32,896 bases of DNA. Origin: a virus. Shown here piece by piece: positions 1 to 32,896 of the stretch (its first letter is position 1; each line of letters opens with the position of its first letter). The stretch is from the IMG/VR virus record IMGVR_UViG_3300020166_000007; one strand, 5' to 3'. The translations under genes were made by a program, and so were the position numbers. The notes beneath the pieces are model-generated. The model worked only from the letters and a program-made list of their open reading frames with translations. It was not told where the DNA came from and searched no databases.

Positions 1-127
1 TAAATAATACAAACACAAAAATAGTTACAAATAATATGGATACAATTATGATTTTTTTAGCAATTATTATAGTGATTTCAGCGGTTGCAATAATTTTGGC
101 GTCACGTAAAATCCTCAAAGATGACAA
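1..127. repeat. Terminal direct repeat, copy 1. It is an exact duplicate of 32770..32896, so the unique circle is about 32,769 bp.
   Basis: Base-by-base comparison shows both copies read TAAATAATACAAACACAAAAATAGTTAC...CTCAAAGATGACAA. A 127-nt exact overlap fits a circular contig closed by an assembler end overlap, or a terminal redundancy. Confidence 0.95.
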
Positions 128-203
128 TGGAAATAAAATTCCAGACTGGCTAGAGGATAAATTTTCAGATATTAAAGAAGAGATTAAAAAATTAAAAAAA
201 TAA
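3..203 (+). CDS. 3' part of a junction-spanning ORF. With the circle closed it encodes an 83-aa single-pass membrane protein and forms part of the lysis cassette.
   Basis: The reading frame from ATG 32721 continues through the repeat to TAA 201..203. The product is MIKNVGNTGTVGNT...MDTIMIFLAIIIVISAVAIILASRKILKDD...KKLKK, with one hydrophobic helix. An internal ATG at 36 is an alternative start. The ORF track missed it because the contig end splits it. Confidence 0.5.
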   Translation, partial: NNTNTKIVTNNMDTIMIFLAIIIVISAVAIILASRKILKDDNGNKIPDWLEDKFSDIKEEIKKLKK

Positions 204-206
204 GCA

Positions 207-668
207 ATGAGATATATCAGCAAACATATCAGCTGGAGGGAGGCGAGTCACTCAGCGACAGCGGAGAAAAAAGAAATCGAAAACACACCGACAGAATCGG
301 CTGTGGTAAATATGAAAAAGCTTGCGAAAAATGTATTCGAGCCGCTCAGAGAATGGGCAAGCGAGCCAATTCGTGTGAATAGTTTTTATAGATCGCCAGA
401 TTTATGTGATGCAATAAGATCATCCAGGAACTCACAACATACTAAAGGTCAAGCTATAGATATTGACGCTACAGGTGAGAAAACAAACGCTGAATTATTT
501 CATTACATAAAAGACAACCTACCTTTTGACCAGTTAATATGGGAGTTTGGTGATGGTGAAAACCCAGACTGGATTCACGTATCTTATGTGGGACCATCTG
601 GTAATAGAGGCAATATTTTAAAGGCGGTTAAAAAAGGTAAAAAGACAAAATACGAGTTCTATGCTTAA
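207..668 (+). CDS. Endolysin, zinc peptidase M15 family (VanY / D-Ala-D-Ala carboxypeptidase-like)
   Basis: 153-aa ORF. The motifs SFYRSPDLCDAI..NSQHTKGQAIDID and DWIHVSY give the H-x6-D...H metal-ligand pattern of M15 peptidoglycan peptidases. The gene is flanked by small membrane-protein genes. Confidence 0.8.
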   Translation: MRYISKHISWREASHSATAEKKEIENTPTESAVVNMKKLAKNVFEPLREWASEPIRVNSFYRSPDLCDAIRSSRNSQHTKGQAIDIDATGEKTNAELFHYIKDNLPFDQLIWEFGDGENPDWIHVSYVGPSGNRGNILKAVKKGKKTKYEFYA

Positions 669-1035
669 AATGTTATTATCTCTTTTAGGAAAAGGTGACA
701 GCGGTAAATCAAATATCGGTGGTTTAGCTTTGGATATAAGAGAGGCAATAAAAGGCAAAGAGATGGATCCTCAGCGCCTTATAGAACTCCAGGCAGAGAT
801 TAATAAAGTAGAGGCTCAGAGTCGACATTGGTTTGTTTCGGCTTGGAGACCTTTTATAGGATGGATTTGCGGTTTAGCTTTTGGATTTCATTACATAGTG
901 ATGCCGCTGCTTATATCTTATACTGACATTAATCCTCCAGAGTTTGATACCAATAGTCTTTTTACTGTACTTATGGGGATGCTAGGTTTGGGCGGATTAA
1001 GAACATACGAGAAATTAAAAGATAAAACTAAATAA
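661..1035 (+). CDS. Holin candidate, resembling the GTA-type 3-TM holin family
   Basis: 124 aa, overlapping the endolysin stop by 8 nt. Hydrophobic segments WRPFIGWICGLAFGFHYIVMPLLI and LFTVLMGMLGLGGL are followed by RTYEK. The resemblance to the GTA holin family is from memory. Confidence 0.55.
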   Translation: MLKMLLSLLGKGDSGKSNIGGLALDIREAIKGKEMDPQRLIELQAEINKVEAQSRHWFVSAWRPFIGWICGLAFGFHYIVMPLLISYTDINPPEFDTNSLFTVLMGMLGLGGLRTYEKLKDKTK

Positions 1036-1313
1036 TGGCAACAAAACAACTTTATAGCGCTAACCTTTTTCATAGGATGTCATTCGGTGATTTTGGTTTT
1101 AGGCATTTAGGACCAGGAGAGACTTCAGTAAGTGGAGAGCGGTTTTGTTTAATTGAGGCGCTTAATAATACTAACGTGGATTTTACAAATAATACCACTG
1201 GAGGGGATACCACTTTGACCGGTTTAGTTTTAAAAGATTTTCACAGCGTAAGGGGGGATATTACTGATATAACTGTAAACAGCGGTTACGTAATTGCATA
1301 CCTTAGAAATTGA
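1035..1313 (+). CDS. Hypothetical protein (92 aa)
   Basis: ORF coupled to the upstream gene by a TAATG overlap. No recognisable motif. Confidence 0.5.
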   Translation: MATKQLYSANLFHRMSFGDFGFRHLGPGETSVSGERFCLIEALNNTNVDFTNNTTGGDTTLTGLVLKDFHSVRGDITDITVNSGYVIAYLRN

Positions 1314-1314
1314 T

Positions 1315-1322
1315 TAAATTTG
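1315..1322 (+). promoter_or_regulatory. Bacteroidota-type -7 promoter box, TAAATTTG
   Basis: Matches TAnnTTTG and lies 14 nt upstream of ATG 1337. The box plus leader, TAAATTTGTAGAAAATAAATAGATGGCTACA, is almost identical to the one at 5129. Confidence 0.45.
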
Positions 1323-1336
1323 TAGAAAATAAATAG

Positions 1337-5150: not shown

Positions 5151-7640
5151 ATGGCTACAACTCAAGTTTCAACCTCGGTATTAAAAGATGGATCAGTAAC
5201 CTCAGCAAAGCTGGATACTAATATAGCTATTACAGGAAATTTAATAGTAGACACAAACACTTTATACGTTGATAGTGCTGACAATAGAGTAGGAATAGGG
5301 ACTACGAGTCCAAGCACACGACTTCACGTTTACGAATCTACCGCTTTAGACCATATTACTATTGATGGTAATGCGGGGGATAATAGAAATTTAAGATTTG
5401 CAACTGAAGATAGCACAAGATGGAATATTTATGCAACAAGTTCTGCTGAAGTTGGTTCTAATGCAGGAAGTGATTTATCATTTACAAGATATTCGGATGC
5501 AGGAGGTTTTTTAAGCGCTGCTATGTTAATACAAAGAAGCTCTGGCAACGTAGGAATAGGTACTTCGAGTCCTGCTGAAAAACTATCTGTGCAAGGAGCA
5601 ATTATAAGCACAGGCGGAATAACAGGACACGGAGCAAATAGAGCAACATTATCTCAAGAGGGAGCAAACGGAGCATTTTTACAATCTTATGGAGCAAATA
5701 CTTCAACTTACGGCTCTTTTCAATTTAGACAGGCAAGTAGTGATTTTAGCTTAGTAAGAACACCCTTAATTATTAATTCAAGTGGCAACGTAGGAATAGG
5801 GACTACGAGTCCTAGTGCTAAGATTGATTTAGTCGGCGGAGATATTACAGGGGGTTTAAAAATATCAGCAGATAAAGTAACATCAGCATTTTTTGCTTTT
5901 GGTGCTGACGCAAATGAAACAAGAATAACTAGCACATCTTATGGGGGTTATAAGCCTTTAACTATCCATACTGGAGGTTCTGAAAGTATGCGTATTGATT
6001 CTAGTGGGGTGGTACAAGTGCGTAATCAAACTCCTACTGTTCAGCTTTATAATACTGATGCTTCTTTAGTTGCAAACCAAATAATTGGGGATATTGACTT
6101 TTATCAATCAGACCCAAGCGGTGTTGGTGTAGGTGTTGTTGGTAAAATAAGAAGTATAAATGATAGTAGTTTTCAAGGAGAAGCAAGTTTAACTTTTCAC
6201 ACAGGCACATCAACATCTTTAACAGAACGTATGCGTATTACTTCCAGTGGCAACATTGGGATAAATGAAACAAATCCACTTGCTGAGTTACACGTCACAG
6301 GAAGTATTAGAAGTGTTATAAATTCAACCGCAGGGGGAAATACTTTTATCGGTGCTATAAATGGTGTTAGTAATGGTCACGCAATATCAACAGACACAAG
6401 TAACAATATTACCTACAGTTGGAATACAGGAACTAATGCTCGTGCTTTGACCATTAGCCCTAGTGGCGACGTAGGAATAGGGACTGATAGTCCTGCTACT
6501 ACGCTCGAAGTATCAACTATAGGAACAGGAAATAGCGAAGGGCAAGTTTTAGCTGAAACACAAGGTGCAAATGGTAACGCAGGATATGGCTTTAGAACCA
6601 ATGGAACTACAAGATGGACTATAGTTACAATAGGAACGGATGGAGCTAATGATTTACGTTTTTATAATGTTGATAACAGTGCAGAACGAATGCGCATTAC
6701 AAGTGCAGGTGCTATTCACTTATCACAAGGTTCGGGTAATGCTTTTGTAGGTACTAATGCAGGTAATTTAGGAACTTCTACAGGGACTAATAATAGTGCG
6801 TTTGGAGAAAGTGCTTTAAGGAGTAACACTACGGGAGGCGCTAACACCGCTGTCGGCAGATTTTCTTTAGATGCTAACACTACAGGAGCAAATAATACGG
6901 CTAACGGCTATGCTACTTTATATGCTAACACTACAGGACTACGTAATACGGCTAGCGGATACTCTGCTTTATTTAATAACACTGAGGGAAATTACAATAC
7001 AGCTACTGGTTATACGGCTTTATATAATAACACTACAGGAAGCTATAACACAGCCACTGGATATGGTGGATTAAATAATAACACTACAGGTGGTTTTAAC
7101 ACAGCTACTGGAAGAAATGCTTTATTTGCTAACACTACAGGAGATCAAAATACTGCTTGCGGATACGCTGCTTTAGGTAATAACACTACAGGAAGTAATA
7201 ACACTGGAATAGGTTATGGTGCCCAATTATCCTCTGCTATTGCAAGTAATGAAGTTATACTTGGAAACAGCAGTGTCACTACTTTAAGATGTAACACTCA
7301 AACAATATCCACTTTGTCAGATATAAGAGACAAGAAAGATATTAAAGAATTACAGGGTGCTGAAGCATTTATAAAAGAATTAAAACCAGTATCTTTTGTT
7401 TGGAATCAAAGAGATGGCGGAAGGGTTGATATTGATGACAACGGATTTATTGCACAAGATTTAATTGAAGCACAAGAAAAATCAGGTCATAAAATACCTA
7501 ACTTAGTTTTAGAAAATAATCCTGAAAAACTAGAAGCAGCTTATGGAGCTATGCTACCAAGTATGGTTTCCGCTTTACAGTCTGCATTAAAAGAAATTGA
7601 TTTATTAAAAACTGAAATAGAAACATTAAAAAATAAATAA
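5151..7640 (+). CDS. Tail fibre 2 with a C-terminal S74 intramolecular chaperone domain and YadA/Hep_Hag-like repeats
   Basis: 829 aa. There are five (N/R/D)(V/I)GIGT.SP..(K/R)L.V modules. About nine NTTGxxNTAxGYxAL repeats follow. The C-terminus reads LSDIRDKKDIKEL...FVWNQ...GFIAQDLIE...AYGAMLPSMV...LKTEIETLK. Confidence 0.85.
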   Translation: MATTQVSTSVLKDGSVTSAKLDTNIAITGNLIVDTNTLYVDSADNRVGIGTTSPSTRLHVYESTALDHITIDGNAGDNRNLRFATEDSTRWNIYATSSAEVGSNAGSDLSFTRYSDAGGFLSAAMLIQRSSGNVGIGTSSPAEKLSVQGAIISTGGITGHGANRATLSQEGANGAFLQSYGANTSTYGSFQFRQASSDFSLVRTPLIINSSGNVGIGTTSPSAKIDLVGGDITGGLKISADKVTSAFFAFGADANETRITSTSYGGYKPLTIHTGGSESMRIDSSGVVQVRNQTPTVQLYNTDASLVANQIIGDIDFYQSDPSGVGVGVVGKIRSINDSSFQGEASLTFHTGTSTSLTERMRITSSGNIGINETNPLAELHVTGSIRSVINSTAGGNTFIGAINGVSNGHAISTDTSNNITYSWNTGTNARALTISPSGDVGIGTDSPATTLEVSTIGTGNSEGQVLAETQGANGNAGYGFRTNGTTRWTIVTIGTDGANDLRFYNVDNSAERMRITSAGAIHLSQGSGNAFVGTNAGNLGTSTGTNNSAFGESALRSNTTGGANTAVGRFSLDANTTGANNTANGYATLYANTTGLRNTASGYSALFNNTEGNYNTATGYTALYNNTTGSYNTATGYGGLNNNTTGGFNTATGRNALFANTTGDQNTACGYAALGNNTTGSNNTGIGYGAQLSSAIASNEVILGNSSVTTLRCNTQTISTLSDIRDKKDIKELQGAEAFIKELKPVSFVWNQRDGGRVDIDDNGFIAQDLIEAQEKSGHKIPNLVLENNPEKLEAAYGAMLPSMVSALQSALKEIDLLKTEIETLKNK
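6775..7235 (+). repeat. Tandem 16-17-codon repeats (NTTG..NTA.GY.AL) inside tail fibre 2
   Basis: GCTAACACTACAGGAG and AATAACACTACAGGA recur about every 51 nt. These repeats also create the spurious alternate-frame ORF 6871..7074. Confidence 0.75.
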
Positions 7641-7642
7641 AA

Positions 7643-7852
7643 ATGGAAATTACAGAACAAAACGTATCGGCACTTTATGATTCAGTTAATTTGATTAACG
7701 AATTACAGGCTATTGAATCCCCTACAGAAGAACAAACGGAAACAATAGAGCGAAATACTAAACACCTTGAAATAATGATGGGTAAAGAAGATTTTGTTGC
7801 TTTACTTACAGAGGCGCAGATAACAGAAATTAATCAACTAATAACAGAATAA
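7643..7852 (+). CDS. Hypothetical acidic protein (69 aa)
   Basis: ORF packed tightly after fibre 2. No motif recognised. Confidence 0.45.
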   Translation: MEITEQNVSALYDSVNLINELQAIESPTEEQTETIERNTKHLEIMMGKEDFVALLTEAQITEINQLITE

Positions 7853-8172
7853 TGACTTACACTTGGAATAACAAAACAGTTGACACTTATCCTACACTAG
7901 AGGGTAATAATGATGTAATCTTTAATGTACACTGGAGACTTACAGGACAGGATGAAAATGGAAACGTAGGTAGTACTTACGGAACTCAATCTTTAGAAAC
8001 CTCAGACCTTTCTAATTTTACAGCATTTGCTGATATTACAGAAGAAGATATTAATGGATGGGTTGAGACAGCATTAGGAGAAGAAAAAGTTACTGGATTA
8101 AAAGCTAGTATAGATGCTCAAATTGCAGAGCAAGTAAACCCTACAGTAGTAACGAAAACTATTGGAGAATAA
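7852..8172 (+). CDS. Hypothetical protein (106 aa)
   Basis: ORF coupled by TAATG. No motif recognised. Confidence 0.5.
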   Translation: MTYTWNNKTVDTYPTLEGNNDVIFNVHWRLTGQDENGNVGSTYGTQSLETSDLSNFTAFADITEEDINGWVETALGEEKVTGLKASIDAQIAEQVNPTVVTKTIGE

Positions 8173-8204
8173 AAATAATTAACTAACCTTTAAATTTAAC
8201 TAAA

Positions 8205-8447
8205 ATGGCAAAACAAGAAAAAAACACCATTACAATTGACGGAGTAGAACACAATTTCGAAGATTTAAACCAGGAGCAGCAAACCATAATAAATCATATT
8301 GCTGACCTAGAGAGAAAAATTAACGGATCTCAATTTAACTTACAACAACTAGAATTTGGAAAAGCTGCCTTTATAAAAGCATTAAAAGAAAGTATGGAAA
8401 ATGAAGCTGGCGAAGTTGATGGCGTTGCTGAAGAGATCAAATCATAA
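8205..8447 (+). CDS. Hypothetical protein (80 aa)
   Basis: ORF with a predicted helical, acidic product. No motif recognised. Confidence 0.5.
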   Translation: MAKQEKNTITIDGVEHNFEDLNQEQQTIINHIADLERKINGSQFNLQQLEFGKAAFIKALKESMENEAGEVDGVAEEIKS

Positions 8448-8485: not shown

Positions 8486-8896
8486 ATGGCGACTACAGGA
8501 GTATTCAACGGAACTAACCTAATATTGAAGATTGAGGACACAGCACTAGGACACACAACTAGCTGCTCATTATCCCTAAGTAATGACTTACCAGAGGCGA
8601 CTACTAAAGACAGTAGCGGATTCCAGGAGGTTATTGCTGGAGTAATGTCTGGAGAACTTTCATTTGATGGATTAGTGGCTTATGATGACACTGCCAATGG
8701 TATAGAATTAGCTGACTACTTACTAGGTAGGACTCAACTTACTTGCGTTTTTGGAACAGAGGTAACTGGCGACGCTGTTTACACCGCTGAGGGATTCCTT
8801 AGCTCTGTAGAAATGAGCGCTGAAATGGAGTCACCAGTAAGCTACAGCGGATCTATCACATTGACAGGAGCGATCACTAAGTCTATCAACGCTTAA
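8486..8896 (+). CDS. Major tail (tube) protein, siphovirus type
   Basis: 136 aa. The sequence MATTGVFNGTNLILKI...ATTKDSSGFQEVIAGVMSGELSFDGLV resembles the TP901-1/phi13-like major tail family. It sits immediately upstream of the chaperone and tape-measure genes. Confidence 0.65.
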   Translation: MATTGVFNGTNLILKIEDTALGHTTSCSLSLSNDLPEATTKDSSGFQEVIAGVMSGELSFDGLVAYDDTANGIELADYLLGRTQLTCVFGTEVTGDAVYTAEGFLSSVEMSAEMESPVSYSGSITLTGAITKSINA

Positions 8897-8913: not shown

Positions 8914-9297
8914 ATGGCAAACAAAAGGAGAGGGTATTATACCACTAAACTGGGTGGGCGTCAACGAACGCTTCACTTTAGTATGAATTTCTGGGCTAAC
9001 TTCACAGATATTATGGATGTGCCACTGGATAAAATAGGAGAGCTATTTTCTGGTGGCGTTTCTATTTCAGCTATTCGAGCTTTGGTTTACAGTGCTATTT
9101 TAGCATTTGACCAGGAGGAGGGTAATGAGATAGACTATAATGAATTTAAAGTAGGTTCCTGGCTTGAGGATATAAACCAGGAAGGGCTGGAAAAAATGAT
9201 AGGCGCAATGATGGAATCTCGTATTTTAGGGAATGACCTTAATATGGGAATTGATCGCCAGGCTAAAACTGTTTCCAATACTAAGGGAAAGCAGTAG
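8914..9297 (+). CDS. Tail assembly chaperone, G-like (zero-frame product, 127 aa)
   Basis: Located between the major tail and tape-measure genes. It ends ...AAG GGA AAG CAG TAG, with a slippery heptamer 6 nt before the stop. Confidence 0.7.
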   Translation: MANKRRGYYTTKLGGRQRTLHFSMNFWANFTDIMDVPLDKIGELFSGGVSISAIRALVYSAILAFDQEEGNEIDYNEFKVGSWLEDINQEGLEKMIGAMMESRILGNDLNMGIDRQAKTVSNTKGKQ

Positions 9298-9626
9298 CCG
9301 ACTCCCTGACCTGGGATGACTTAGAGGATTATTATATTGGGCAAGTCGGCATAGATCCAGATAAGTTCTGGATTTACACCTGGAGAGAAAATCAACTACT
9401 AGGCGAATCCTATATGATAAAACAGAATCTGGAATGGGAGCGGATTAGATATTTGGCGACTATGTTACACAATGTAAATTGTCAAAAGCGCCAACATATG
9501 ATTAAACCAGAGAAATTATTTCCATTGCCCCAGGATAAATTTAACAAGATTCAAAAACCTAAAGGCACAAAACAGGATTATGAGTCATTTAAAGAGAAAG
9601 CTATAGCAGCTGGCGTTAAATTCTAA
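8914..9626 (+). CDS. Tail assembly chaperone GT-like frameshift product (about 236 aa, with a -1 shift at 9285..9291)
   Basis: After the slip the frame reads GGG AAA GCA GTA GCC GAC..., giving ...KAVADSLTWDDLEDYYIGQ...MIKQNLEWERIRY...AAGVKF. This absorbs track ORF 9414..9626 and the otherwise unexplained gap 9298..9413. Confidence 0.65.
9285..9291 (+). promoter_or_regulatory. -1 programmed ribosomal frameshift slippery heptamer, G GGA AAG
   Basis: X_XXY_YYZ in the zero frame of 8914..9297. The -1 frame is open only from 9285, after stops at 9252, 9264 and 9282, and runs to TAA 9624..9626. As I recall it, this is the same heptamer as the phage lambda G/GT site. Confidence 0.75.
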
Positions 9627-20280: not shown

Positions 20281-20282
20281 AT

Positions 20283-21848: not shown

Positions 21849-21878
21849 AACGTAGTTTGGATAGGTTCTGCGTTTTTT
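21849..21878 (+). terminator. Probable terminator hairpin, preceded by a second hairpin at 21815..21836
   Basis: AACGTAG-N12-CTGCGTT forms a 7-bp stem with one G-U pair, followed by TTTTT. The upstream hairpin is TAACTAG-N8-CTAGTTA. Confidence 0.4.
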
Positions 21879-21881
21879 ACC

Positions 21882-21889
21882 TAATTTTG
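21882..21889 (+). promoter_or_regulatory. -7 box TAATTTTG, 4 nt from ATG 21894
   Basis: TAATTTTG-CAAT-ATG is identical in layout to 27303 (TAAATTTG-CAAT-ATG). Confidence 0.4.
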
Positions 21890-21893
21890 CAAT

Positions 21894-23424: not shown

Positions 23425-23428
23425 TTAC

Positions 23429-23436
23429 TATTTTTG
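23429..23436 (+). promoter_or_regulatory. -7 box TATTTTTG (TTTGTATAA class)
   Basis: Matches TAnnTTTG and is followed by TATAATTAAAAATTTTCGTATTGG and ATG 23461. Confidence 0.4.
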
Positions 23437-23460
23437 TATAATTAAAAATTTTCGTATTGG

Positions 23461-25089
23461 ATGGCTAGTTTCTTAGATAGATTCAAAAACATTGTTTCTA
23501 AAAGCGCACAAAAAACTCATATAGATTTCAACAAAGCAATCTATAATTATTTAGGTGATACTCTGGTATGGAATCCAGAGAACGATGATACTTACATCGA
23601 CAAGGGCTATCGATACAACGCCACAATCTATTCTATTATAAATTTGATTACTAAGTCAGCGACAAACATTCCTTTCCAGGTCTATGAGGTGCAAAAATCA
23701 AATGATCTAAAAAGATACAAGGCGCTCACCTCTGGAGACTTTAACTCAAACACTATTCTACAAGCTAAGATGCTACAGAAAAAGGCACTAGTAGAGCTAG
23801 AGGATACTGAGCTGCATCAATTACTAGATAGACCAAACCCAGCACAGGGATATAATGCCTGGATTCAAGAGATCATAGCCTTTGGGAAACTTACAGGAAA
23901 CCGATACATCTATGGTATTGGACCAGATACAGGAGCTGGAGTTGGAAAATTTAAAGAACTTTATGTATTGCCATCTCAAAAAGTAGAGATTAACTCTGGC
24001 GGTATTATGGAGCCAGTAAAAGAATATACGCTATCCTACAATGGAACTTATAGAATTGCAGCTGATGAGGTTTGCCATATAAAAGATACAAACCTTTACT
24101 ACGATGGGACAGGATCGCATTTATATGGAATGTCACCTCTAAAGGCTGGACTTAGGGTAATGGATGCTAATAACCAGGCATTGACTACTGGCGTTAAGTA
24201 TTTACAAAATCAAACAGCGAGAGGGATCTTAATGTCTGAGGAGGGCGATTTAAACGAGGTCCAGGCTAAACAGTTAAAAGATAAATTCCGCCAACAATAC
24301 CAGGGCAGCGATAATGCTGGAGACGTAATCATTACTCCTAAGAAACTTTCGTGGGTAAATTTTGGGCTTAATGCCTCTGATTTATCGCTCATAGAACAAT
24401 ACAACGGAACTATAAAGGATCTATGTAATATTTACAATGTACCAGTACAGCTGCTAAACAATACTGAAAGCACTACTTACAACAATATGAAAGAGGCTAA
24501 AAAGGCACTCTATCAAAATGCTGTTATCCCAGAGCTTAATAAAATTAGAGATGAGCTGAATAGATGGCTTGCTCCACAATATGGCGATAAGATTTATATA
24601 GACTTTGACTACTCAGCTATCCCAGAACTCCAGGAGGAAATGGATAAGGTAGTTGGACAGATGAGCCAAGCCTGGTGGATCACGCCAAACGAGAAGAGAG
24701 CCGCTATGTCTTATGGTTTAGATGAGGAAAATGATAAACTAAATGACTACTATGTCCCAGCTAATTTAATGCCCATTAATGGTGATATTATTCCAGAGGC
24801 GGCTGATAAGGGTTTGGATTTAGATATATCTAAACTATTTAAAACCGCTGTAATTAATACAGTTGACACTTACACTACTATAGAGGAGGCTCAAGCTAGA
24901 GCAATCGAAATGGGAGGCACTGGGTATCACGAGCATTTATTTAACGGCTCGACAGTCTTTATGCCATTTGCAACTCACGCTGAATATGAGGCAGCTAAAA
25001 ACAACCGCCTAGATGAGTTCTATGCAGCTCAGAGACGTGATGAGGGATATAATGAGGATATAGATTTTGACTCTATAGAAACAAAATAA
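23461..25089 (+). CDS. Portal protein with a C-terminal extension of about 100 aa
   Basis: 542 aa, positioned after TerL with a portal-like core. The C-terminal extension contains GGTGYHEHLFNGSTVFMPFATHAEYE. Confidence 0.75.
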   Translation: MASFLDRFKNIVSKSAQKTHIDFNKAIYNYLGDTLVWNPENDDTYIDKGYRYNATIYSIINLITKSATNIPFQVYEVQKSNDLKRYKALTSGDFNSNTILQAKMLQKKALVELEDTELHQLLDRPNPAQGYNAWIQEIIAFGKLTGNRYIYGIGPDTGAGVGKFKELYVLPSQKVEINSGGIMEPVKEYTLSYNGTYRIAADEVCHIKDTNLYYDGTGSHLYGMSPLKAGLRVMDANNQALTTGVKYLQNQTARGILMSEEGDLNEVQAKQLKDKFRQQYQGSDNAGDVIITPKKLSWVNFGLNASDLSLIEQYNGTIKDLCNIYNVPVQLLNNTESTTYNNMKEAKKALYQNAVIPELNKIRDELNRWLAPQYGDKIYIDFDYSAIPELQEEMDKVVGQMSQAWWITPNEKRAAMSYGLDEENDKLNDYYVPANLMPINGDIIPEAADKGLDLDISKLFKTAVINTVDTYTTIEEAQARAIEMGGTGYHEHLFNGSTVFMPFATHAEYEAAKNNRLDEFYAAQRRDEGYNEDIDFDSIETK

Positions 25090-25095
25090 AAGCAT

Positions 25096-25512
25096 TTGCA
25101 AATCCAGGATGTACATAACCTAGAAAAATCAATTGTCACATTATTCAATCTCGATGGCTGGGATTTACAGTGGTGTGGTGGCGGTTATGATCATTATGAT
25201 GCAAAAGGAAAGACGCCAAATGGTAGTAATTGCGTGATAGAAATGAAATTCCGAAACAAATACTATAATACTAAAATCTTAGAAAAATACAAATATGATC
25301 AAATAATGGCTTTGCCAGATGATGTGATTAAATTGTATTTTGTAGATGACCCTAAAGCCAACTATCTATTCTGGTTAAATGATTTAACTATTCCAGGGAT
25401 TAAAGAGATTGAATGCCCTAGCACTACTCTATGGGATCAAAAAAAGAAAACTAAAGAGCTGTATTTGCTTAATGAGTCCCAGGCGATTGTTATAAATAAA
25501 AACCAGGAATAA
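25096..25512 (+). CDS. Small putative PD-(D/E)XK-fold nuclease (138 aa, non-ATG TTG start)
   Basis: The motif YDHYD...(16 aa)...VIEMKFR fits D...E-x-K. The first in-frame ATG lies inside this motif, so a TTG start at 25096, 7 nt after the portal stop, is needed. Confidence 0.4.
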   Translation: MQIQDVHNLEKSIVTLFNLDGWDLQWCGGGYDHYDAKGKTPNGSNCVIEMKFRNKYYNTKILEKYKYDQIMALPDDVIKLYFVDDPKANYLFWLNDLTIPGIKEIECPSTTLWDQKKKTKELYLLNESQAIVINKNQE

Positions 25513-27119
25513 TGTTACTAAAAAAAGCTAAAGAATCCTGGAAAAATAACTTTGATAAAGTTCTGGCTAGTGCAGAGCGTAAAGAGTTTGCTAATGCTAG
25601 ACGCTACTATGAGGGTGAGTACCTTAAAGCAATAGATGATTTTTTAAACACTAGGAAAGCCACTGGATTTGATGGGTTATTTAGATTAGCCGATTTATCT
25701 GAAATATATCGCCAGGTCTATGTAAACATAGGACTCAAGTTTGCAAAATGGTATTCTCAAAACTTTGATAAGGTAATATCTAAGCAAGTGGATGTAACTG
25801 GCTATGATGATATTTGGGCGGAGCGTTTTAACAGAGTCAGCCAGCAAATAGCAGCCGAGAGAGTAACACTAGTCCAGGGGACTGCTAAGGCTACTCTAGT
25901 GAATGTATTCAAACGTTTATCCTCAAATCCAGAGTTTATGACTATGGGTGAACGTGAAGGCGGAAAGTTATTACGCCAGAAGTTTAGCCAATACAGCAAA
26001 AGCCAGGCAGAAAGATTAATCAGGACTGAGTCAACGAATGCTGCTAATTATGCAACGCTACAGAGCGCAACTGATATGTTTGGACAGGAAAGTTTACAAA
26101 AGGAATGGATGACTTCAGTAGATGGCAGAGAGCGTGCAGCTCATAGGTTTGCAGATGGGCAAATAGTAGGTTTTAAAGAAAGGTTTTTAGTAGGTGGCGA
26201 ACAGTTATTCCATCCTGGTGATCCATCTGGAAGCGCCAGAAATGTTGTCAATTGTAGATGCTCTACAGCGCCTTTCCCTAAACCAGAGGCTCAAGCTACA
26301 GGAACTATCCAGGGATTTGGAATAAGACCTCCAGGGCAAGGTATTGGAACTCAGCCTACAGGACCATCAACTCAAAGCGTACTAAGAACTCCTAAGCCAG
26401 TTCGAGAGGTTGTGGAGGAGGTTAAACCTAAGAAGCCACAATTCTATCCAGAGGAGTTAGATAGAATGATTGAGGATGGGTATTTAGTAGGAAATACCGA
26501 ATACTTAAATTTATTAATTGAGCCAGTTAAATTAATTAGAGTGAAAGGTGAATCTGAGCAATTAGCAAATATTATAAAAATTGGAGTTAATAGATTTAAA
26601 CCAGGCTCTAAAACGTTTAGTAATGTTTTAAGTCACGAATTTGGTCACGCTATACATAACCAAAGAAATTGGGCTGTCTTTAATCCTTTTGACAAAAAAA
26701 ATCCAATTGTAGATCCTATAGTGAAAAAATACTTTAATAAATGGCAAAAAATGCTGGGACACAAAAAAGGAAGAGATATTCAAAGAGCTATTCGTAATAA
26801 ATATCATCCTGGGAAATTAGAATATGATTTTGAGCGATTAAAAAAAGAATTTCCAAATTTAAGTTTAAATGAGATTAGAGAATATCACGGATCTATGGCA
26901 GATTTTTTTGGCGCACTAACTAAAAACAGATTAGGCGGAGGACATTCAAATTTTTATTACAATCAAAGGGGTGTTTATGGGCAATATTCAGAGGTTTTAG
27001 CGCATACTTTTGAAAATTACTACGATGTAAATCCAATATTTAAAAAGTATTTTCCTGAGCTATTTGAGGAAACTAAAGAATTAATGAGAGAACTTTTAAA
27101 ACAAGTAGATGGAATTTGA
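25512..27119 (+). CDS. Head morphogenesis protein (Mu F / SPP1 gp7 family) fused to a C-terminal HExxH zincin-like domain
   Basis: 535 aa. The MuF core is AERLIRTESTNAANYATLQS...EWMTSVDGRERAAHR...PGDPSGSARNVVNCRCS. A P/G/Q-rich linker follows. The C-terminal domain carries SHEFGHAIHN, with HEFGH at 26634..26648. Confidence 0.75.
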   Translation: MLLKKAKESWKNNFDKVLASAERKEFANARRYYEGEYLKAIDDFLNTRKATGFDGLFRLADLSEIYRQVYVNIGLKFAKWYSQNFDKVISKQVDVTGYDDIWAERFNRVSQQIAAERVTLVQGTAKATLVNVFKRLSSNPEFMTMGEREGGKLLRQKFSQYSKSQAERLIRTESTNAANYATLQSATDMFGQESLQKEWMTSVDGRERAAHRFADGQIVGFKERFLVGGEQLFHPGDPSGSARNVVNCRCSTAPFPKPEAQATGTIQGFGIRPPGQGIGTQPTGPSTQSVLRTPKPVREVVEEVKPKKPQFYPEELDRMIEDGYLVGNTEYLNLLIEPVKLIRVKGESEQLANIIKIGVNRFKPGSKTFSNVLSHEFGHAIHNQRNWAVFNPFDKKNPIVDPIVKKYFNKWQKMLGHKKGRDIQRAIRNKYHPGKLEYDFERLKKEFPNLSLNEIREYHGSMADFFGALTKNRLGGGHSNFYYNQRGVYGQYSEVLAHTFENYYDVNPIFKKYFPELFEETKELMRELLKQVDGI

Positions 27120-27297
27120 AAAACTAAGAAATAAATATTTAGAAAAACATCCTGATAGTGAGGATCCAATTAACTATACATATCAATTCGGTTTTGATTT
27201 TGTAACAGATTTTTTAAAAAATGCTAATGATAGAGAAATAGCTTACCAGGATGATCCATTTATGGCTGATGATGGAGGATCACTCATTTATTTATAA
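27109..27297 (+). CDS. Small acidic protein (62 aa), translationally coupled to the MuF-zincin gene
   Basis: ORF overlapping the upstream gene by 11 nt. No motif recognised. Confidence 0.5.
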   Translation: MEFEKLRNKYLEKHPDSEDPINYTYQFGFDFVTDFLKNANDREIAYQDDPFMADDGGSLIYL

Positions 27298-27302
27298 TTA
27301 AT

Positions 27303-27310
27303 TAAATTTG
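27303..27310 (+). promoter_or_regulatory. -7 box TAAATTTG, 4 nt from ATG 27315
   Basis: Reads TAAATTTG-CAAT-ATG. Confidence 0.4.
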
Positions 27311-27314
27311 CAAT

Positions 27315-28007
27315 ATGAACACAATCATTTATAAATCAACCCAGATAGGCGAGCTGTTAGACGCTGACACCTCCGCTGGAGTTGTAAAGGGATATGGATC
27401 TGTTTTTGGTAATGTCGACAGTGATGGCGATATAATCAATAAGGGAGCATACAAAAAGACAATCCAGGAAAACGCTAAGAGAGTTAAATATTTATATCAG
27501 CACGATATGGATAAGCCTCTAGGCAAAATGGTACACCTGGAAGAGGATGACAAAGGTTTAGTTTTTGAGGCGCATATACCTAAAACACAATTAGGGAAAG
27601 ATGTCGTTGAACTTATGAAGGCTGGAGTAATCACTGAAAACTCAGTGGGAATATTGCCTCTACAAAAAGAAATGGGACACGATGGATACAGACACCTCAA
27701 CGAAGTAAAACTCTTTGAGATTAGTGCCGTAACATTAGCAGCGAACGACCAGGCAATGATAATGGATGTAAAAGGTAATATAGATCCAGAAAAAATTGCT
27801 AAAAGGTTCGATAAAATGGCTCAATTAATCAGAAAGGGAGAGATCTCAGATGATTTGGGATACGCCCTGGAGGCGGAAATACTAAAGCTAAAATCTATTT
27901 ACATAAATGTCACTCAGCCGACCGATATTGAAGTCACTGAGCCGATTGTAGTAAAGGCAGACAATAGCGAAATTTTTAAATATTTGTTTAACACTCTAAA
28001 AAAATAA
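27315..28007 (+). CDS. Prohead maturation protease, HK97 family (S78)
   Basis: 230 aa. The motifs are VKGYGSVFGNVDSDGDIINKGAYKKTI, YQHD..KPLGK and EISAVTLAANDQA. Confidence 0.8.
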   Translation: MNTIIYKSTQIGELLDADTSAGVVKGYGSVFGNVDSDGDIINKGAYKKTIQENAKRVKYLYQHDMDKPLGKMVHLEEDDKGLVFEAHIPKTQLGKDVVELMKAGVITENSVGILPLQKEMGHDGYRHLNEVKLFEISAVTLAANDQAMIMDVKGNIDPEKIAKRFDKMAQLIRKGEISDDLGYALEAEILKLKSIYINVTQPTDIEVTEPIVVKADNSEIFKYLFNTLKK

Positions 28008-28009
28008 AA

Positions 28010-29215
28010 ATGGAGGATAACTTAAAAAAAGAACTTGATCAGATCGGAAACATAGTTGATGAGAGAATCGAGAAAGCATTTAACCAGGCTAAAGATAACG
28101 CCAAAGGTGAAATGGAATCATCTCTAAAATCAGAGATTGATAACTTGACTACACAGTATGTAGAGAAGAGCGAAGCTCTTAACAAGAGAATGGATGAGAT
28201 GGAAATGGCTGCAAAGAAAACTATTTCTGGAGCTACTCCACAGACATTTAAATCAGCTATCCATACAGCTTTAAAAGATGGCGCAATTGACGCAATGCTT
28301 AAAGGTAATGCAAACGCTGCTCGCTTTGAAGTAAAAGCTGATATGAGCCTTGGTGCTGATGTTACTGGAGTAGTTGCTGGAGAAACTATCGTGGATCAAA
28401 TCAAATACGATCCTAGTCGTTCAACTCATATTCGTTCTTTGCTTTCTTTAGGATCAACAGATGCTCAAACTATCCGTTATCCAAAAGAGTCTGCTTATAG
28501 CGATAACGCTGGAACTACTGCAGAAGCCGCTGCATTTGGACAGTCAGATTTTGATCTTGCTGCTTCAACTGTAAACGTTGAGAAAATTGGTACTTATATG
28601 AGAATCACTGGAGAGATGTTGGATGATATCAAGCAATTGACTTCTTACCTTTCTGCTAGAGTTCCAGAAAAAGTGCTATCTGTAGAGGATAACCAGATCT
28701 TAAATGGGGATGGATCATCACCAAACTTAGATGGATTATTCACTGACGGAGCTGCATTTGCCGCTGGAGGATTTGCGAACGCTATTGAGTCTGCTAATGA
28801 GTTTGACGTGCTTACAGTTGCTTTAAACCAACTTGCATTGGCTAACTACCAGGCTGATACTATCGTATTAAACCCAACTGATTTACACAAAATGATTTTG
28901 TTGAAATCTACTGCTAATGAGTATTTGAGAAATCAAATCTTTAGCGGTTTACAACCAACAATCAACGGAATCCCTGTAACACTTAATACAGCCGTTACAG
29001 CTGGAAAATTCTTATGTGGAAATTTACGTCAAGCGTCTCAGCTTTGGATTCGTGAGAATCTAGCTGTAGAGTTTAGCCGTGAGGATTCGGATAACTTCCA
29101 AAAGAATTTCGTGACTGTACGTGCAATGGAGAGAGTAGCTTTAACTAACTACCTACCTAATGCAATTGTACAGGGAACTTTCTCAACTGCTAAAGCTGCT
29201 TTAGAGACTGCATAA
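28010..29215 (+). CDS. Major capsid protein, HK97 fold
   Basis: 401 aa. It has an N-terminal coiled-coil delta-like region, follows the protease, shows HK97-family-like sequence and is followed by a strong terminator. Confidence 0.85.
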   Translation: MEDNLKKELDQIGNIVDERIEKAFNQAKDNAKGEMESSLKSEIDNLTTQYVEKSEALNKRMDEMEMAAKKTISGATPQTFKSAIHTALKDGAIDAMLKGNANAARFEVKADMSLGADVTGVVAGETIVDQIKYDPSRSTHIRSLLSLGSTDAQTIRYPKESAYSDNAGTTAEAAAFGQSDFDLAASTVNVEKIGTYMRITGEMLDDIKQLTSYLSARVPEKVLSVEDNQILNGDGSSPNLDGLFTDGAAFAAGGFANAIESANEFDVLTVALNQLALANYQADTIVLNPTDLHKMILLKSTANEYLRNQIFSGLQPTINGIPVTLNTAVTAGKFLCGNLRQASQLWIRENLAVEFSREDSDNFQKNFVTVRAMERVALTNYLPNAIVQGTFSTAKAALETA

Positions 29216-29260
29216 TAACAGTTAATACAGCTCATTTAATAGTGAGAATTTTATTTAATA

Positions 29261-29289
29261 GGGTAGCCTTAATTGGTTACCCTTTTTTT
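29261..29289 (+). terminator. Rho-independent terminator after the capsid gene
   Basis: GGGTAGCC-TTAATT-GGTTACCC forms an 8-bp stem followed by T7. Confidence 0.7.
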
Positions 29290-29369
29290 ATGCTTTATAA
29301 AATAATTTCCCCATAAATTTGGAATTTCCAAATAAATCTGTAAATTTGGGGAAACAAACTTTAAATATT
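29290..29369 (+). promoter_or_regulatory. Promoter/operator module, copy B (paralogue of 14289..14367)
   Basis: It has -7 boxes TAAATTTG at 29314 and 29341. A perfect 17-bp palindrome ATTTGGAATTTCCAAAT lies at 29317..29333. It is flanked by TTTCCCC (29307) and GGGGAAA (29348). The leader is GAAACAAAC. Confidence 0.55.
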
Positions 29370-29537: not shown

Positions 29538-29684
29538 ATGGATTTGCAGCAAAAGGTAAGGGTTGTCTTGATAATAGGGTTTATCGCCTGGGGGTTTTCC
29601 CTGGGCTTTAGATTCCAGGCTTTGTGGGATGCTCTTGTAATGTTTATTTTATCATTTGTTTTATACCGATATAATAATGGATGA
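29538..29684 (+). CDS. Small membrane protein (48 aa), not in the track
   Basis: The product is MDLQQKVRVVLIIGFIAWGFSLGFRFQALWDALVMFILSFVLYRYNNG, with two hydrophobic segments. Its stop overlaps the next start (ATGGATGA). Confidence 0.4.
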   Translation: MDLQQKVRVVLIIGFIAWGFSLGFRFQALWDALVMFILSFVLYRYNNG

Positions 29685-29935: not shown

Positions 29936-29960
29936 ATACTTTGTTTCATTTTGATAGGGA

Positions 29961-29991
29961 AACCCTGGATTTAACGTCTAGGGTTTTTTTT
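29961..29991 (+). terminator. Rho-independent terminator
   Basis: AACCCTGGA-N7-TCTAGGGTT forms a 9-bp stem with one G-U pair, followed by T8. Confidence 0.65.
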
Positions 29992-29992
29992 G

Positions 29993-30004: not shown

Positions 30005-30379
30005 GTGGATAATAATCAACAAGGCTGTTTGGCGGAATACTTATTCGCCACTGAGTGTATGAAAAGAAACTACCAGGTCTCTATGCCTTTGATGGACTCA
30101 TCACTTTATGACTGCATCGTGGATACAGGAAAACAACTACTAAGAATACAAATAAAATCATCCGCAAAAATTCCAGAAAATGATAGACTCAGTAATGTAC
30201 ATATTCCGCTGCAAAATAATAAGCGCAACTACACTAAAGAAAAGATTGACTACTTTGCTGTCTGGTCTGATTTTTTTAATGGTTGGTTTGTTTTTAAAAA
30301 TACTGGAGATATGCAATCAATAAGAGTTTCAATAACAGGTAAGAATAAGAAATTTTTTAATAACTTTGCATTTGAGTAG
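30005..30379 (+). CDS. Stand-alone PD-(D/E)XK endonuclease (Hjc/PDDEXK-like), GTG start
   Basis: 124 aa. GCLAEYLFATECMKRNYQVSMPL..SLYDCIVDTGKQLLRIQIKSS matches the G..aE....l...G..V..P....YD.iv......RiQVK pattern. The gene has its own promoter box and terminators on both sides. Confidence 0.6.
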   Translation: MDNNQQGCLAEYLFATECMKRNYQVSMPLMDSSLYDCIVDTGKQLLRIQIKSSAKIPENDRLSNVHIPLQNNKRNYTKEKIDYFAVWSDFFNGWFVFKNTGDMQSIRVSITGKNKKFFNNFAFE

Positions 30380-31176: not shown

Positions 31177-31502
31177 TGAATGCAGGAAAATTAAATACTA
31201 GAGTTGAGGTTAAGAGATTAACTAAGACGCCAGATGGATTTGGAGGAACCACTTCGACTACAGCAACTGTAGAGACTCTATGGGCAAATAAAAAGGATAT
31301 GAAGGGCGATATTTCAGATACTGAAGGCAAACGTGGTCGATCAGTAATGATTGAATTAGAGCTAAGAAAAAAGGCGGCTGATTTAATCCAGGATAATGAC
31401 ATTTTAAAAATAGAAAATAAACCAGGGAATTATCGTATAAATGGTATTTACGATAGTGACCAGGATTTTTTTACTGTAATCAAAGCCACAAAACTAGATT
31501 AA
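31176..31502 (+). CDS. Head-tail adaptor / head closure protein (SPP1 gp16-like)
   Basis: 108 aa. The sequence is MNAGKLNTRVEVKRLTKTPDGFGGTTSTTATVETLWANKKDMKG. The assignment rests on this pattern and on synteny. Confidence 0.65.
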   Translation: MNAGKLNTRVEVKRLTKTPDGFGGTTSTTATVETLWANKKDMKGDISDTEGKRGRSVMIELELRKKAADLIQDNDILKIENKPGNYRINGIYDSDQDFFTVIKATKLD

Positions 31503-31861
31503 TGAAAGTAGAATTTAATAAATCCGACTATAATAAACTACAGGCAAAATTAACAAAATTAAAGGCTATTGACAGAACGCTGTTATCTACTGAAATAGGA
31601 AGAGGCGCTTTAAATATTGCTAGAGATATGAAAAGAAATGCGCCAGTAGATAATGGGGATTTAAAAAAATTAATTAAATCTGTTGTAAATAATAAGCAAG
31701 CTGAAATTAGATCGGATGCTGATTATTCTGCATATGTAGAATTTGGCGGAGGCACACCTAGAAAAACTGGTGAGATTCCTTTCTTTTACCCAGCTATAAA
31801 TAGAGGAATGCCTAAAATGATAGCTAGTATTAATAACACAATTAAAAAACTACTCAAATGA
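31502..31861 (+). CDS. HK97 gp10-family tail-completion/neck protein
   Basis: 119 aa. The motif DNGDLKKLIKS...DADYSAYVEFGGG is the gp10-family signature. Confidence 0.6.
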   Translation: MKVEFNKSDYNKLQAKLTKLKAIDRTLLSTEIGRGALNIARDMKRNAPVDNGDLKKLIKSVVNNKQAEIRSDADYSAYVEFGGGTPRKTGEIPFFYPAINRGMPKMIASINNTIKKLLK

Positions 31862-32298
31862 TAGAGGCAATCCATTTTATAAGAAAGGCGATTATAACAC
31901 GTCTAACAAACGCAATTACATCCAATGGGGTAACTGTGCCAATTTATAATAGAGTGCCTAACGATGCCTCTGAGCCTTATATAAGAGTATATTCAGTTGA
32001 CTCTACAGAGGTTGATCAAAATTCAGATACTTTTATGTTGGAATGCTCTACTAGGATTGAGGTGGTAACTTCATTTGTTGGTGATGATGGCGGAGAGTTG
32101 CAAGCGAATCAAATTGCATCGGACATTTTAACCCTAATTAGAACACGCTCTGGATCCTATTTCGATCTAAGTGCGGATGGATTTAATGTTTACACTTGCA
32201 CAAACCAGGGAACGAGTTATCTATATGAGGATGGCGGAGAGAAAACATATTTTAGAGCGATTTTAAATATTACCAATAGAGTAGAACAACCTAATTAA
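31858..32298 (+). CDS. Tail terminator-like protein (DUF3168 / SPP1 gp17-like)
   Basis: 146 aa. The pattern VPIYNRVPNDASEPYIRVY...IEVVTSF and the gene's position support the call. Confidence 0.5.
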   Translation: MIEAIHFIRKAIITRLTNAITSNGVTVPIYNRVPNDASEPYIRVYSVDSTEVDQNSDTFMLECSTRIEVVTSFVGDDGGELQANQIASDILTLIRTRSGSYFDLSADGFNVYTCTNQGTSYLYEDGGEKTYFRAILNITNRVEQPN

Positions 32299-32299
32299 A

Positions 32300-32440
32300 A
32301 TGGAGCAATTGAAAATATATTTTTTTAATGGAATAGCTTTAGCTATAAGCGTGACATCTATAAACCCATTTTTACAAACAATCAGTCTAGTGCTGGCAAT
32401 ATTATACACTGGAATTTCAATTTATAAAAAAATAAAATAA
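32300..32440 (+). CDS. Small membrane protein (46 aa), not in the track
   Basis: The product is MEQLKIYFFNGIALAISVTSINPFLQTISLVLAILYTGISIYKKIK. It is the first of three small membrane proteins upstream of the endolysin. Confidence 0.4.
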   Translation: MEQLKIYFFNGIALAISVTSINPFLQTISLVLAILYTGISIYKKIK

Positions 32441-32443
32441 AGT

Positions 32444-32740
32444 ATGTCCCCAAAAATTGATATTAATAACGATGGAAAAGCGGATTTTAGTATTTCGCCT
32501 ATGCAAATAATTACAATAGGAGCAATGTTTGCCTCAGTAATCGGATCATATTACACTCTAAACAATAGAACTAGTTTACTGGAGGAGGAGGTTTCTAAAT
32601 TACAATACAATCAAAAAGAGTACACTTGGAAAAATCAAAGAGAGCTTGAGGACCAGGTGAAACAAATTGAGCTGACTCTTAGAGATTTTATGAAGGATTT
32701 AGAATACCTAGGAAAAGACAATGATAAAAAACGTAGGTAA
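32444..32740 (+). CDS. Bitopic membrane protein with a C-terminal coiled coil (i-spanin-like or holin-accessory candidate)
   Basis: 98 aa. The TM segment is MQIITIGAMFASVIGSYYTL, followed by LLEEEVSKLQYNQ...LEDQVKQIELTLRDFMKDLEYL. Confidence 0.5.
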   Translation: MSPKIDINNDGKADFSISPMQIITIGAMFASVIGSYYTLNNRTSLLEEEVSKLQYNQKEYTWKNQRELEDQVKQIELTLRDFMKDLEYLGKDNDKKRR

Positions 32741-32896
32741 TACAGGAACTGTAGGAAACACCTTAAATTTAAATAATACAAACACAAAAATAGTTACAAA
32801 TAATATGGATACAATTATGATTTTTTTAGCAATTATTATAGTGATTTCAGCGGTTGCAATAATTTTGGCGTCACGTAAAATCCTCAAAGATGACAA
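32721..32896 (+). CDS. 5' part of the junction-spanning 83-aa membrane-protein ORF (continues at 128..203)
   Basis: ATG 32721 overlaps the previous gene by 20 nt. The frame stays open to the window end and matches the frame of 3..203. Confidence 0.5.
   Translation, partial: MIKNVGNTGTVGNTLNLNNTNTKIVTNNMDTIMIFLAIIIVISAVAIILASRKILKDD
32770..32896. repeat. Terminal direct repeat, copy 2 (identical to 1..127)
   Basis: Exact 127-nt identity with the window start. Confidence 0.95.

Follow-up and report, generated by a model that had tools for sequence, protein, structure and literature searches.

Genome-wide enrichment of the restriction-type palindrome CCWGG in one phage clade

Introduction

Phage genomes are expected to lose restriction-type palindromes. 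Short motifs that are enriched genome-wide are known from Chi, the DNA uptake sequences and the FtsK-orienting polar sequences (KOPS), in which each copy brings a small additive gain and which are lineage- or host-specific and subject to turnover. This report concerns the pentamer CCWGG in a viral DNA of 32,896 nucleotides (IMG/VR record IMGVR_UViG_3300020166_000007; the whole stretch is referred to as the window). CCWGG resembles these motifs in its genome-wide enrichment, lineage specificity, turnover and probably small additive gain per copy, but those motifs lack symmetry, are read directionally or from a single strand and belong mostly to cellular genomes, whereas CCWGG is a palindrome of the restriction-modification (R-M) type. 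The avoidance of restriction palindromes that is usual in phages is seen in the window for CATG, GGCC, CGCG and CCGG, which are purged, and in sister lineages for CCWGG itself; in the enriched clade, CCWGG goes in the opposite direction and is 2.5-fold over-represented. No report of the enrichment of an R-M-type palindrome in phages was found in the literature searched.

Two further systems provide comparisons. In Escherichia coli with Dcm methylation and very-short-patch (VSP) repair by Vsr, CCWGG is likewise in excess through synonymous positions and CCAAG/CTTGG is depleted, but purging is limited to the neighbors that differ at the inner position and there is no boost of the outer C, whereas in the window all four C/G positions are boosted and neither CTAGG/CCTAG nor CTAG is depleted. 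The effect in the window's clade is also far stronger than in E. coli, with saturation of up to 91% in a genome of 36% G+C. In motif-specific phage DNA modification (C5-methyltransferase with TET/5mYOX enzymes, or ParB-dependent T-dioxygenases), how densely the DNA is modified would depend on how dense the target motif is, and one relative (L002; related loci are given by L numbers) bears such a cassette at the locus of the window's methyltransferase. The characterized modification enzymes, however, favor NTC or NTG rather than CCWGG, the window has only an adenine-type methyltransferase, and the cassette differs among relatives and is absent from equally enriched ones.

Exact counts and null models

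An exact search of the + strand of the window (1-32896) finds 70 CCAGG and 32 CCTGG, together 102 CCWGG or about 1 per 320 bp, the same numbers that the original prediction had reached by hand. Markov models of orders 0, 1, 2 and 3 predict 20.7, 26.2, 46.4 and 65.5 sites. In 1000 within-gene, amino-acid-fixed codon shuffles, which preserve each protein sequence and each gene's codon usage, CCWGG occurs 41.0 times (SD 3.7, maximum 56), and the observed count is 2.5-fold higher (z=16.5). CCAGG is the strongest outlier among the 1024 pentamers in these shuffles (70 versus 23.2 expected, z=13.9), and CCTGG is raised too (32 versus 17.7 expected). A codon-swap Markov chain that is further constrained to avoid CATG, GGCC, CCGG, CGCG, CCCG, GGACG and ACGGT still predicts only 42.7 sites (SD 3.5). 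The count is thus close to the hundred sites first claimed, and neither the shuffles nor the Markov models explain the excess.

CCWGG ranks top (z=16.5) of the 80 strand-symmetric classes of pentamers that have four G/C and one A/T, and the median ratio of observed to expected counts across these classes is 0.985; GC-rich words are therefore not inflated in general. No flank preference and no longer motif were found, and the enriched hexamers all consist of CCWGG plus one arbitrary base, so the motif is exactly CCWGG. The example sites given earlier at 423, 4903, 8621 and 18685 are all correctly placed, and the hand counts of about 19 CTAGG and 18 CCTAG lie close to the exact 21 and 19. The single in-frame C-CAA-G reported at 13872 (hyphens mark codon boundaries) is an undercount, as there are two, at 13873 and 24667.

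Construction and placement of the sites

The sites are built from synonymous choices in all three reading frames, with both W variants enriched, which supports the DNA-level cause that had been proposed from covarying wobble positions. Three examples illustrate the main classes:

8621-8629, + strand: NNC-CAG-GNN (TTC CAG GAG), the dominant class
18685-18690, + strand: NCC-AGG (ACC AGG), second frame, before arginine
2423-2428, + strand: NCC-TGG (TCC TGG), second frame, before tryptophan

The first class accounts for 48 of the 70 CCAGG, and 48 of the 106 possible X-Gln-[VADEG] contexts (45%) are realized as sites compared with 6-10% expected. Within C-CAR-G, Gln is written 48 times as CAG and twice as CAA (96% CAG; Fisher p=3e-20), compared with a CAG share of 25% after T and of 12-59% in other contexts, and the control family AAR shows no comparable context effect. 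The wobble base ahead of the Gln codon in Y-CAR-G is C in 69% of cases versus 19-24% in other contexts (p=1.5e-9). NCC precedes TGG in 11 of 18 cases (61%) versus about 10% of NCN codons overall (p=5e-8), and precedes AGG in 11 of 17 (65%) versus 8% before AGA; [SPTA]-Trp contexts are realized as sites in 46% (6-10% expected), and Pro-Gly is invariably written CCW-GGN. Single-step neighbors are rare, with ratios of 48:5 for C-CAG-G to T-CAG-G, 48:2 for C-CAG-G to C-CAA-G, 11:4 for NCC-AGG to NCT-AGG and 11:2 for NCC-AGG to NCC-AGA. The boost is confined to the full pentamer, against neighbors at all four C/G positions.

The gaps between sites are exponential and Poisson-like, with a coefficient of variation of 1.28 in the window and about 1.0 in relatives, and no periodicity or clustering of the sites was found. 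The effect is therefore additive per site, and neither position nor even spacing is selected. Saturation, taken as the share of synonymous opportunities that are realized as CCWGG, differs among the gene modules, and two short elements carry sites outside the main genes:

5151-7640, + strand: tail-fiber gene with a Peptidase_S74 chaperone domain; CCWGG at 0 of 16 synonymous opportunities (P=1.6e-4)
9654-12137, + strand: tape-measure gene; low saturation, 2 of 13 opportunities
14239-29215, + strand: replication and head-morphogenesis genes; highest saturation, about 42 of 77 opportunities (about 55%)
29538-29684, + strand: small hydrophobic open reading frame (ORF) of 48 aa; clustered sites at 29587, 29600 and 29615; L083 has a gene call here
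29950-29992, + strand: terminator-like hairpin; stem changed from CCTAG to CCTGG (site 29964) in the window's lineage only, a gain outside coding sequence

The tape measure of L002 is only 66% identical to that of the window, compared with 99% for the rest of the L002 genome, which reveals mosaic tail modules. The tail module appears to have been exchanged horizontally, with a composition that is seemingly not adapted yet, and the tail-fiber gene (5151-7640) is probably a recently exchanged module still without acquired sites. Sites thus seem to build up the longer a gene has resided in the lineage. The G+C content of third codon positions (GC3) is lowest in the tail-fiber and tape-measure genes (0.19-0.21). 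The seemingly non-coding sites of the window fall in the 48-aa ORF, a probable frameshift extension of a tail chaperone, an unlisted ORF (17173-17586) and the terminator stem; because almost all of them lie in small ORFs or in this stem, they provide no independent non-coding test.

Enrichment and purging among related phages

The clade comparison covers 80 loci carrying the portal gene, whose lineages are mutually non-independent phylogenetically; many of these relatives are fragments, and their ORFs were called by a simple longest-ORF rule. Loci with a portal identity of at least 87% have 2.4-5.0 CCWGG per kb, about five times the order-0 expectation. At 68-79% portal identity CCWGG is at baseline, and L044-L050, L052, L053, L068 and L071-L074 have zero sites versus 5-14 expected. 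The enrichment is seen across dozens of independent metagenome assemblies. When tape-measure matches were searched for unrelated phages with the same signature, every enriched locus came from the same family, and the cultured Cellulophaga phage phi12:1 is not enriched (63 CCWGG versus 48).

The fraction of Y-CAR-G contexts that read CCAGG follows the same division. It is 0.69 in the window and 0.64-0.91 in relatives with at least 87% portal identity (0.74-0.77 in L003, L005 and L016; 0.82-0.91 in L009, L010, L012 and L025), 0.27-0.59 in the intermediates L021, L023, L029, L041 and L057, 0-0.10 in neutral lineages and exactly 0 in others. In codon shuffles, CCWGG is the top pentamer of L012 (z=13.7) and L005 (z=14.1). 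All words of other lineages stay below such values, the nearest being CAWTG (z about 9 in L068 and L072) and CCSGG (z=6.6 in L043).

Enrichment of W- or S-centered 5-bp palindromes may recur in the family, more weakly than that of CCWGG: CCGG and CCSGG are 2.7- to 4.6-fold enriched in L043, CAWTG is about 2.1-fold enriched in L068, L072 and L074, and GGWCC occurs 25 times versus 8 in L070.

Gain, loss and retention of sites

About half of the window's sites are common to a relative at about 80% nucleotide identity. Three-way comparisons find 14-17 private sites in each of three sublineages versus 5-9 private absences, and in the window's lineage 17 gains versus 9 losses. Because private gains exceed absences in each sublineage, gain is ongoing and independent, the window's lineage included. 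Transversions (ACAGG to CCAGG) are among the private sites of the window, as are two-step gains, namely CTAGA to CCAGG three times, TCAAG to CCAGG and CTTAG to CCTGG. Between near-identical genomes, the recent losses are for the most part C>T or G>A changes and strike any of the four positions.

Among close relatives, G/C wobble positions within sites differ as often as the background (12/118 versus 163/1815). At 80% identity they differ less (0.32 versus 0.47; odds ratio for L012 0.52, p=0.001). This contrast, which resembles a McDonald-Kreitman (MK) comparison and has low power, is the pattern of purifying selection and not of a mutational cold spot. Long-term retention, normal short-term mutation and independent gains, as expected of a generic motif selected for copy number, were all found, with modest power from 12 polymorphic site positions.

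The ParB-methyltransferase and its variable cassette

The region between the primase and small terminase subunit genes (20525-21894 in the window) is a hypervariable cassette, represented in the window by one gene:

20679-21794, + strand: ParB_N-N6_N4 DNA methyltransferase; DPPY motif, adenine-type; variable cassette gene

Where the cassette is present, it is headed by the same ParB N-terminal domain, which in the window is fused to the N6_N4 methyltransferase. In L002 (96% nucleotide identity) the cassette at 5609-8324 encodes a ParB domain only and, after it, an FkbM methyltransferase and a TET/JBP dioxygenase. ParB-dependent phage 5mYOX pathways have recently been described, and the L002 arrangement matches them (PMC13229309). 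The cassette of L024 (1055-3390) encodes a 220-aa C5-methyltransferase and a different ParB-methyltransferase, and nothing is found at this position in L003, L005, L010, L012 and L025. As candidate causes of the enrichment, the L024 C5-methyltransferase was rejected because it also occurs in the CCWGG-free L073 and L074, and the TET/JBP cassette because it occurs in L002 only.

For L003, L005 and L012, the portal-anchored and tape-measure-anchored loci were merged into contigs that cover 25-31 kb of the approximately 33-kb genome. These contigs contain no ORF of at least 90 aa with a (D/N/S)PP(Y/F/W/H) or PPC motif and have 3.0-3.9 CCWGG per kb. A methyltransferase is very likely, if not with absolute certainty, absent from these three phages, as the contigs lack 1-7 kb of the tail-fiber region.

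Directly before the cassette, an 80-aa protein of the window (20283-20525) corresponds to the C-terminal domain, which resembles a double-stranded RNA-binding domain, of a 243-aa protein in L003, L005, L008, L010, L012 (7569-8300), L016 and L025. The N-domain of the 243-aa protein has conserved GE..GDDGTDF..QVK residues with a PD-(D/E)XK-like look. The best Protein Data Bank fold match of a model of this protein (predicted local distance difference test score 80) is the N-domain of Eco15I, an m5C-dependent restriction enzyme of the BisI family. The 243-aa protein was not used in the explanation because this match is weak (E=0.02, template-modeling scores 0.29/0.44) and because the window's lineage, without the N-domain, still gains sites.

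Other avoided and enriched words

Several words are purged from the window relative to codon-shuffle expectation: CATG (0 versus 42.5), GGCC (0 versus 27.5), CGCG (0 versus 19.7), GGACG/CGTCC (0 versus 13.7) and ACGGT (0 versus 12.2), with CCGG (2 versus 18.7) and CCCG/CGGG (4 versus 29) nearly so. The CATG purge is recent in the window, as CATG is present in L003 and L005 (92-94% identity). Elsewhere in the family, the non-palindromic CAGG/CCTG is at 0 in L048, L049, L070 and L092, and CTAG and GATC are at 0 in L030-L034. The complete purging of these other words means that motif-level selection is demonstrably effective in the family.

CTTC/GAAG occurs 121 times in the window versus 207 expected and is at 0 in L008-L012 (80-124 expected; 0/124 in L012), and GAAGA/TCTTC, an MboII-type site, is at exactly 0 in L003, L005, L016 and L025. 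Across sublineages, CCWGG saturation goes together with CTTC/GAAG depletion (rho=-0.94 against CTTC/GAAG content, with no phylogenetic correction). The window's sublineage, with its adenine-type ParB-methyltransferase, tolerates more GAAGA. This enzyme may protect GAAGA-type sites, to which L016 is a counter-example.

GGCG/CGCC is in about twofold excess family-wide (181 versus 103 in the window; on the + strand, 114 GGCG and 67 CGCC), as are GCGCC/CGCCA. The excesses of GGCG/CGCC and of CCAGH were rejected as related phenomena, being family-wide and unrelated to the clade-specific excess of CCWGG.

Alternative explanations

The excess might be artefactual, or a side effect of uneven GC3, of codon-pair bias or of compensating for words that are avoided. 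Higher-order Markov models do absorb part of it (65.5 at order 3), and several GC-rich words such as GGCG/CGCC are also about twofold enriched. Such an origin is extremely unlikely, however, given that the codon-shuffle and avoidance-constrained nulls give 41-43, that comparable GC-rich words have a median ratio of 0.985, that the GGCG excess is family-wide and the CCWGG excess clade-specific, and that all frames contribute and dozens of independent metagenome assemblies show the pattern. Classical Dcm/Vsr repair in a Dcm-positive host, which would turn CTWGG into CCWGG, had been put forward as one option and is very unlikely; in its favor are the depletion of CCAAG/CTTGG in the window (0.51-fold) and an excess of CCAG/CTGG tetramers (350 versus 225), as in E. 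coli. Vsr corrects T:G solely at the inner cytosine, and repair at position 2 cannot lift the outer C over its baseline, as is observed here (69% versus 19-24%, p=1.5e-9); a four-state model of Y-CAR-G caps saturation at about 25% even with infinite inner-position bias, compared with the observed 69-91%. CTAGG and CCTAG are not depleted (40 versus 27.8 expected, 1.44-fold), CTAG is near expectation (96 versus 105-116), and the CCAG/CTGG excess outside CCWGG (CCAGH) is family-wide, CCWGG-free lineages included. A control of 150 kb from Dcm+/Vsr+ E. coli K-12 is opposite to the window: CTAGG (3), CCTAG (4) and CCAAG (27) are purged, C at the outer position gets no boost (0.40 in Y-CAR-G versus 0.44-0.48 elsewhere) and TCAGG (253) exceeds CCAGG (220), whereas TCAGG is depleted in the window (15 versus 37.9). 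No vsr or dcm gene was found in the window, in that a Pfam scan of its 30 larger proteins (about 15 ORFs of 51-146 aa being unscanned) detects no PF00145 or Vsr domain; no window protein besides the ParB-methyltransferase has an amino- or C5-methyltransferase catalytic motif. The outer C and the E. coli control led to the rejection of this option.

A selected, functional site is the best supported of the classes of explanation first considered, while the proposed link to the methyltransferase at 20679 fails. That CCWGG is the target of the phage's own ParB-METHYLTRANSFERASE (20679-21794), with the enrichment serving this modification, is very improbable: the window has an intact gene, some PF01555 enzymes are N4-cytosine methyltransferases and CCWGG methylation has been reported in marine viral metagenome-assembled genomes (MAGs) (PMC9516812), but the DPPY motif is typical of N6-adenine methyltransferases, the best matches are M.MboIIA, DpnA, CcrM and YhdJ, the cassette is swappable (other enzymes replace it in L002 and L024) and the L003, L005 and L012 contigs, without a methyltransferase motif, have an equal or higher CCWGG density. 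The main rival is a mutational or repair drive on the whole site, in which an undescribed host or phage activity would correct or prevent mutation at the four C:G pairs. High saturation, Poisson spacing and turnover would also be expected from a strong bias, and relatives encode uncharacterized nucleases, among them, in the most saturated genomes, the 243-aa protein that looks PD-(D/E)XK-like. This drive is nevertheless unlikely, since sites in close relatives mutate like background G/C wobble positions and are thus no cold spots, the gains include transversions and double changes, Vsr as the only known site-specific repair acts on one position with a different signature, and the window's lineage still gains sites (17 gains versus 9 losses) without the N-domain of the 243-aa protein. 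Less plausible again is a selected motif outside restriction-modification, either a Chi-like exonuclease stop on permuted headful ends or a recognition site of the primase-helicase. Motif gain has a known precedent in the enrichment of Chi in phages, 1 site per 320 bp is similar to the density of the 5-mer Chi of Bacillus subtilis in its host, the phage has a T7 gp4-like primase-helicase, a RecE-like exonuclease and no obvious RecBCD inhibitor, and CCWGG contains CTG/CAG, a DnaG-type trinucleotide. Chi and primase sites, however, are asymmetric and read on single strands, while CCWGG is palindromic with CCAGG and CCTGG both boosted on the same strand; sister lineages purge exactly CCWGG, which points to restriction-type recognition; and the primase is 64-75% identical in CCWGG-free lineages. 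A Chi-like motif would be asymmetric, with an orientation bias, and enriched in the host genome as well; here the word is palindromic and both W variants are boosted, and strand bias is confounded by the one-strand gene layout.

Proposed explanation

VSP repair, codon bias, by-products of avoidance and the phage methyltransferase are thus excluded as causes of the excess. Its size, its specificity for the pentamer in all frames, its restriction to one clade and the continuing independent gains require a force that reads the whole pentamer on the duplex, favors its presence, acts additively per site, is clade-specific and still operates. We infer that this force is selection rather than a repair bias on the whole site. 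The favored reading, with moderate confidence, is that positive selection in this phage clade acts directly on the number of CCWGG sites in duplex DNA. Any opportunity that is synonymous or otherwise cheap would be driven toward the full pentamer, and sites decaying under AT-biased mutation would be purged. A very small additive benefit per site could suffice for this, because marine phage populations are very large.

The word is palindromic, it is a frequent R-M specificity, and sister lineages have purged exactly this word. From these three facts we infer that the sites are read by a symmetric double-stranded DNA-binding protein of restriction-modification type, which the host supplies or to which it is linked, rather than by a conserved phage gene product. 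The leading guess is that modified, methylated or protein-bound sites would protect the genome or mark it as tolerated, according to their density. More specifically, and tentatively, there may be an as yet undescribed host-phage interaction that rewards the virus for a high density of an R-M-type palindrome, with CCWGG modified or bound by the host or by an unrecognized phage factor. A defense or repair pathway might then spare or favor DNA the more, the more densely it carries modified or bound CCWGG. The motif would thereby be pushed to saturation in one phage lineage, while its sister lineages would be pushed to zero copies of it. The anticorrelation of CCWGG saturation with CTTC/GAAG content (rho=-0.94) would be expected if a single host environment imposed both as cumulative adaptations. 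A marine study using SMRT (single-molecule real-time) sequencing found CCWGG cytosine methylation only in viral MAGs, most of them without methyltransferase genes (PMC9516812). This makes a modification-based role plausible, although the MAGs of that study are not linked to the present clade.

Several points weigh against selection for site number. Behind the MK-like contrast are 12 polymorphic positions, and the interval of its short-term odds ratio is wide. The lineages compared are phylogenetically non-independent, and their ORFs were called by the longest-ORF rule. We know of no benefit of extra R-M-type sites, and under classical restriction more sites are worse. A host-wide process is also possible, the host search having returned only unreliable MAG bins, and so is a reading at the RNA level, as all genes are on one strand.

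The finding is unusual because more sites are harmful under classical restriction. Near-saturation in one clade with purging in its sisters shows that the same short word can be strongly favored, and implies a reader of CCWGG with a positive, density-scaled effect on the phage. If CCWGG is read by a methyltransferase of the host, by a binding protein or by a 'self' defense that senses motif density, this would define a new axis of phage-host coevolution, and CCWGG density would also be a new kind of signal for host prediction.

Genome, gene content and host

The window is the complete or nearly complete, circularly permuted genome of an uncultured marine siphovirus. An ENA metagenome contig of 32.9 kb carries its sequence too, and alignments to relatives run across both ends of the window. 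Its approximately 45 genes are all on the + strand, and its G+C content is 35.7%. The gene content comprises lysis genes (endolysin, holin), tail genes (two Peptidase_S74 tail-fiber proteins, tail tube, tape measure), replication genes (RecE-like exonuclease, DnaA-C-like helix-turn-helix protein, VRR-NUC, T7 gp4-like primase-helicase), the ParB_N-N6_N4 methyltransferase as modification gene and head genes (terminase, portal, MuF, prohead protease, HK97-type capsid, PDDEXK_5 protein).

The portal has about 600 relatives in IMG/VR. The nearest cultured relatives are siphoviruses of Cellulophaga and Flavobacterium (portal identity 28-35%), and a megablast search of 25 kb against cultured phages gave no match. 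A host search in GTDB genomes returned only six members of the family, all in MAG bins whose taxonomy is mixed; three of the six are assigned to Bacteroidota and none comes from the enriched clade. Two TAAATTTG elements upstream of 29319 resemble the -7 promoter box of Bacteroidota and fit such a host. The host is probably a marine member of the Bacteroidota, based on these -7-like elements, the hosts of the nearest cultured phages and the three MAG bins.

In the intergenic region after the capsid gene (29216-29330), which also includes the two TAAATTTG elements, a hairpin and, after it, a T-run lie at about 29262-29290. A PD-(D/E)XK endonuclease gene (30005-30379; PF11645, the family of an intron-encoded homing endonuclease) is placed between the capsid gene and the head-tail connector genes and is kept across the whole family, CCWGG-free lineages included. 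Between the tail tube and tape-measure genes, the ORFs at 8914-9297 and 9414-9626 resemble a tail-assembly chaperone pair, and the gap between them, with CCTGG at 9310 and 9379, may be read via programmed frameshift.

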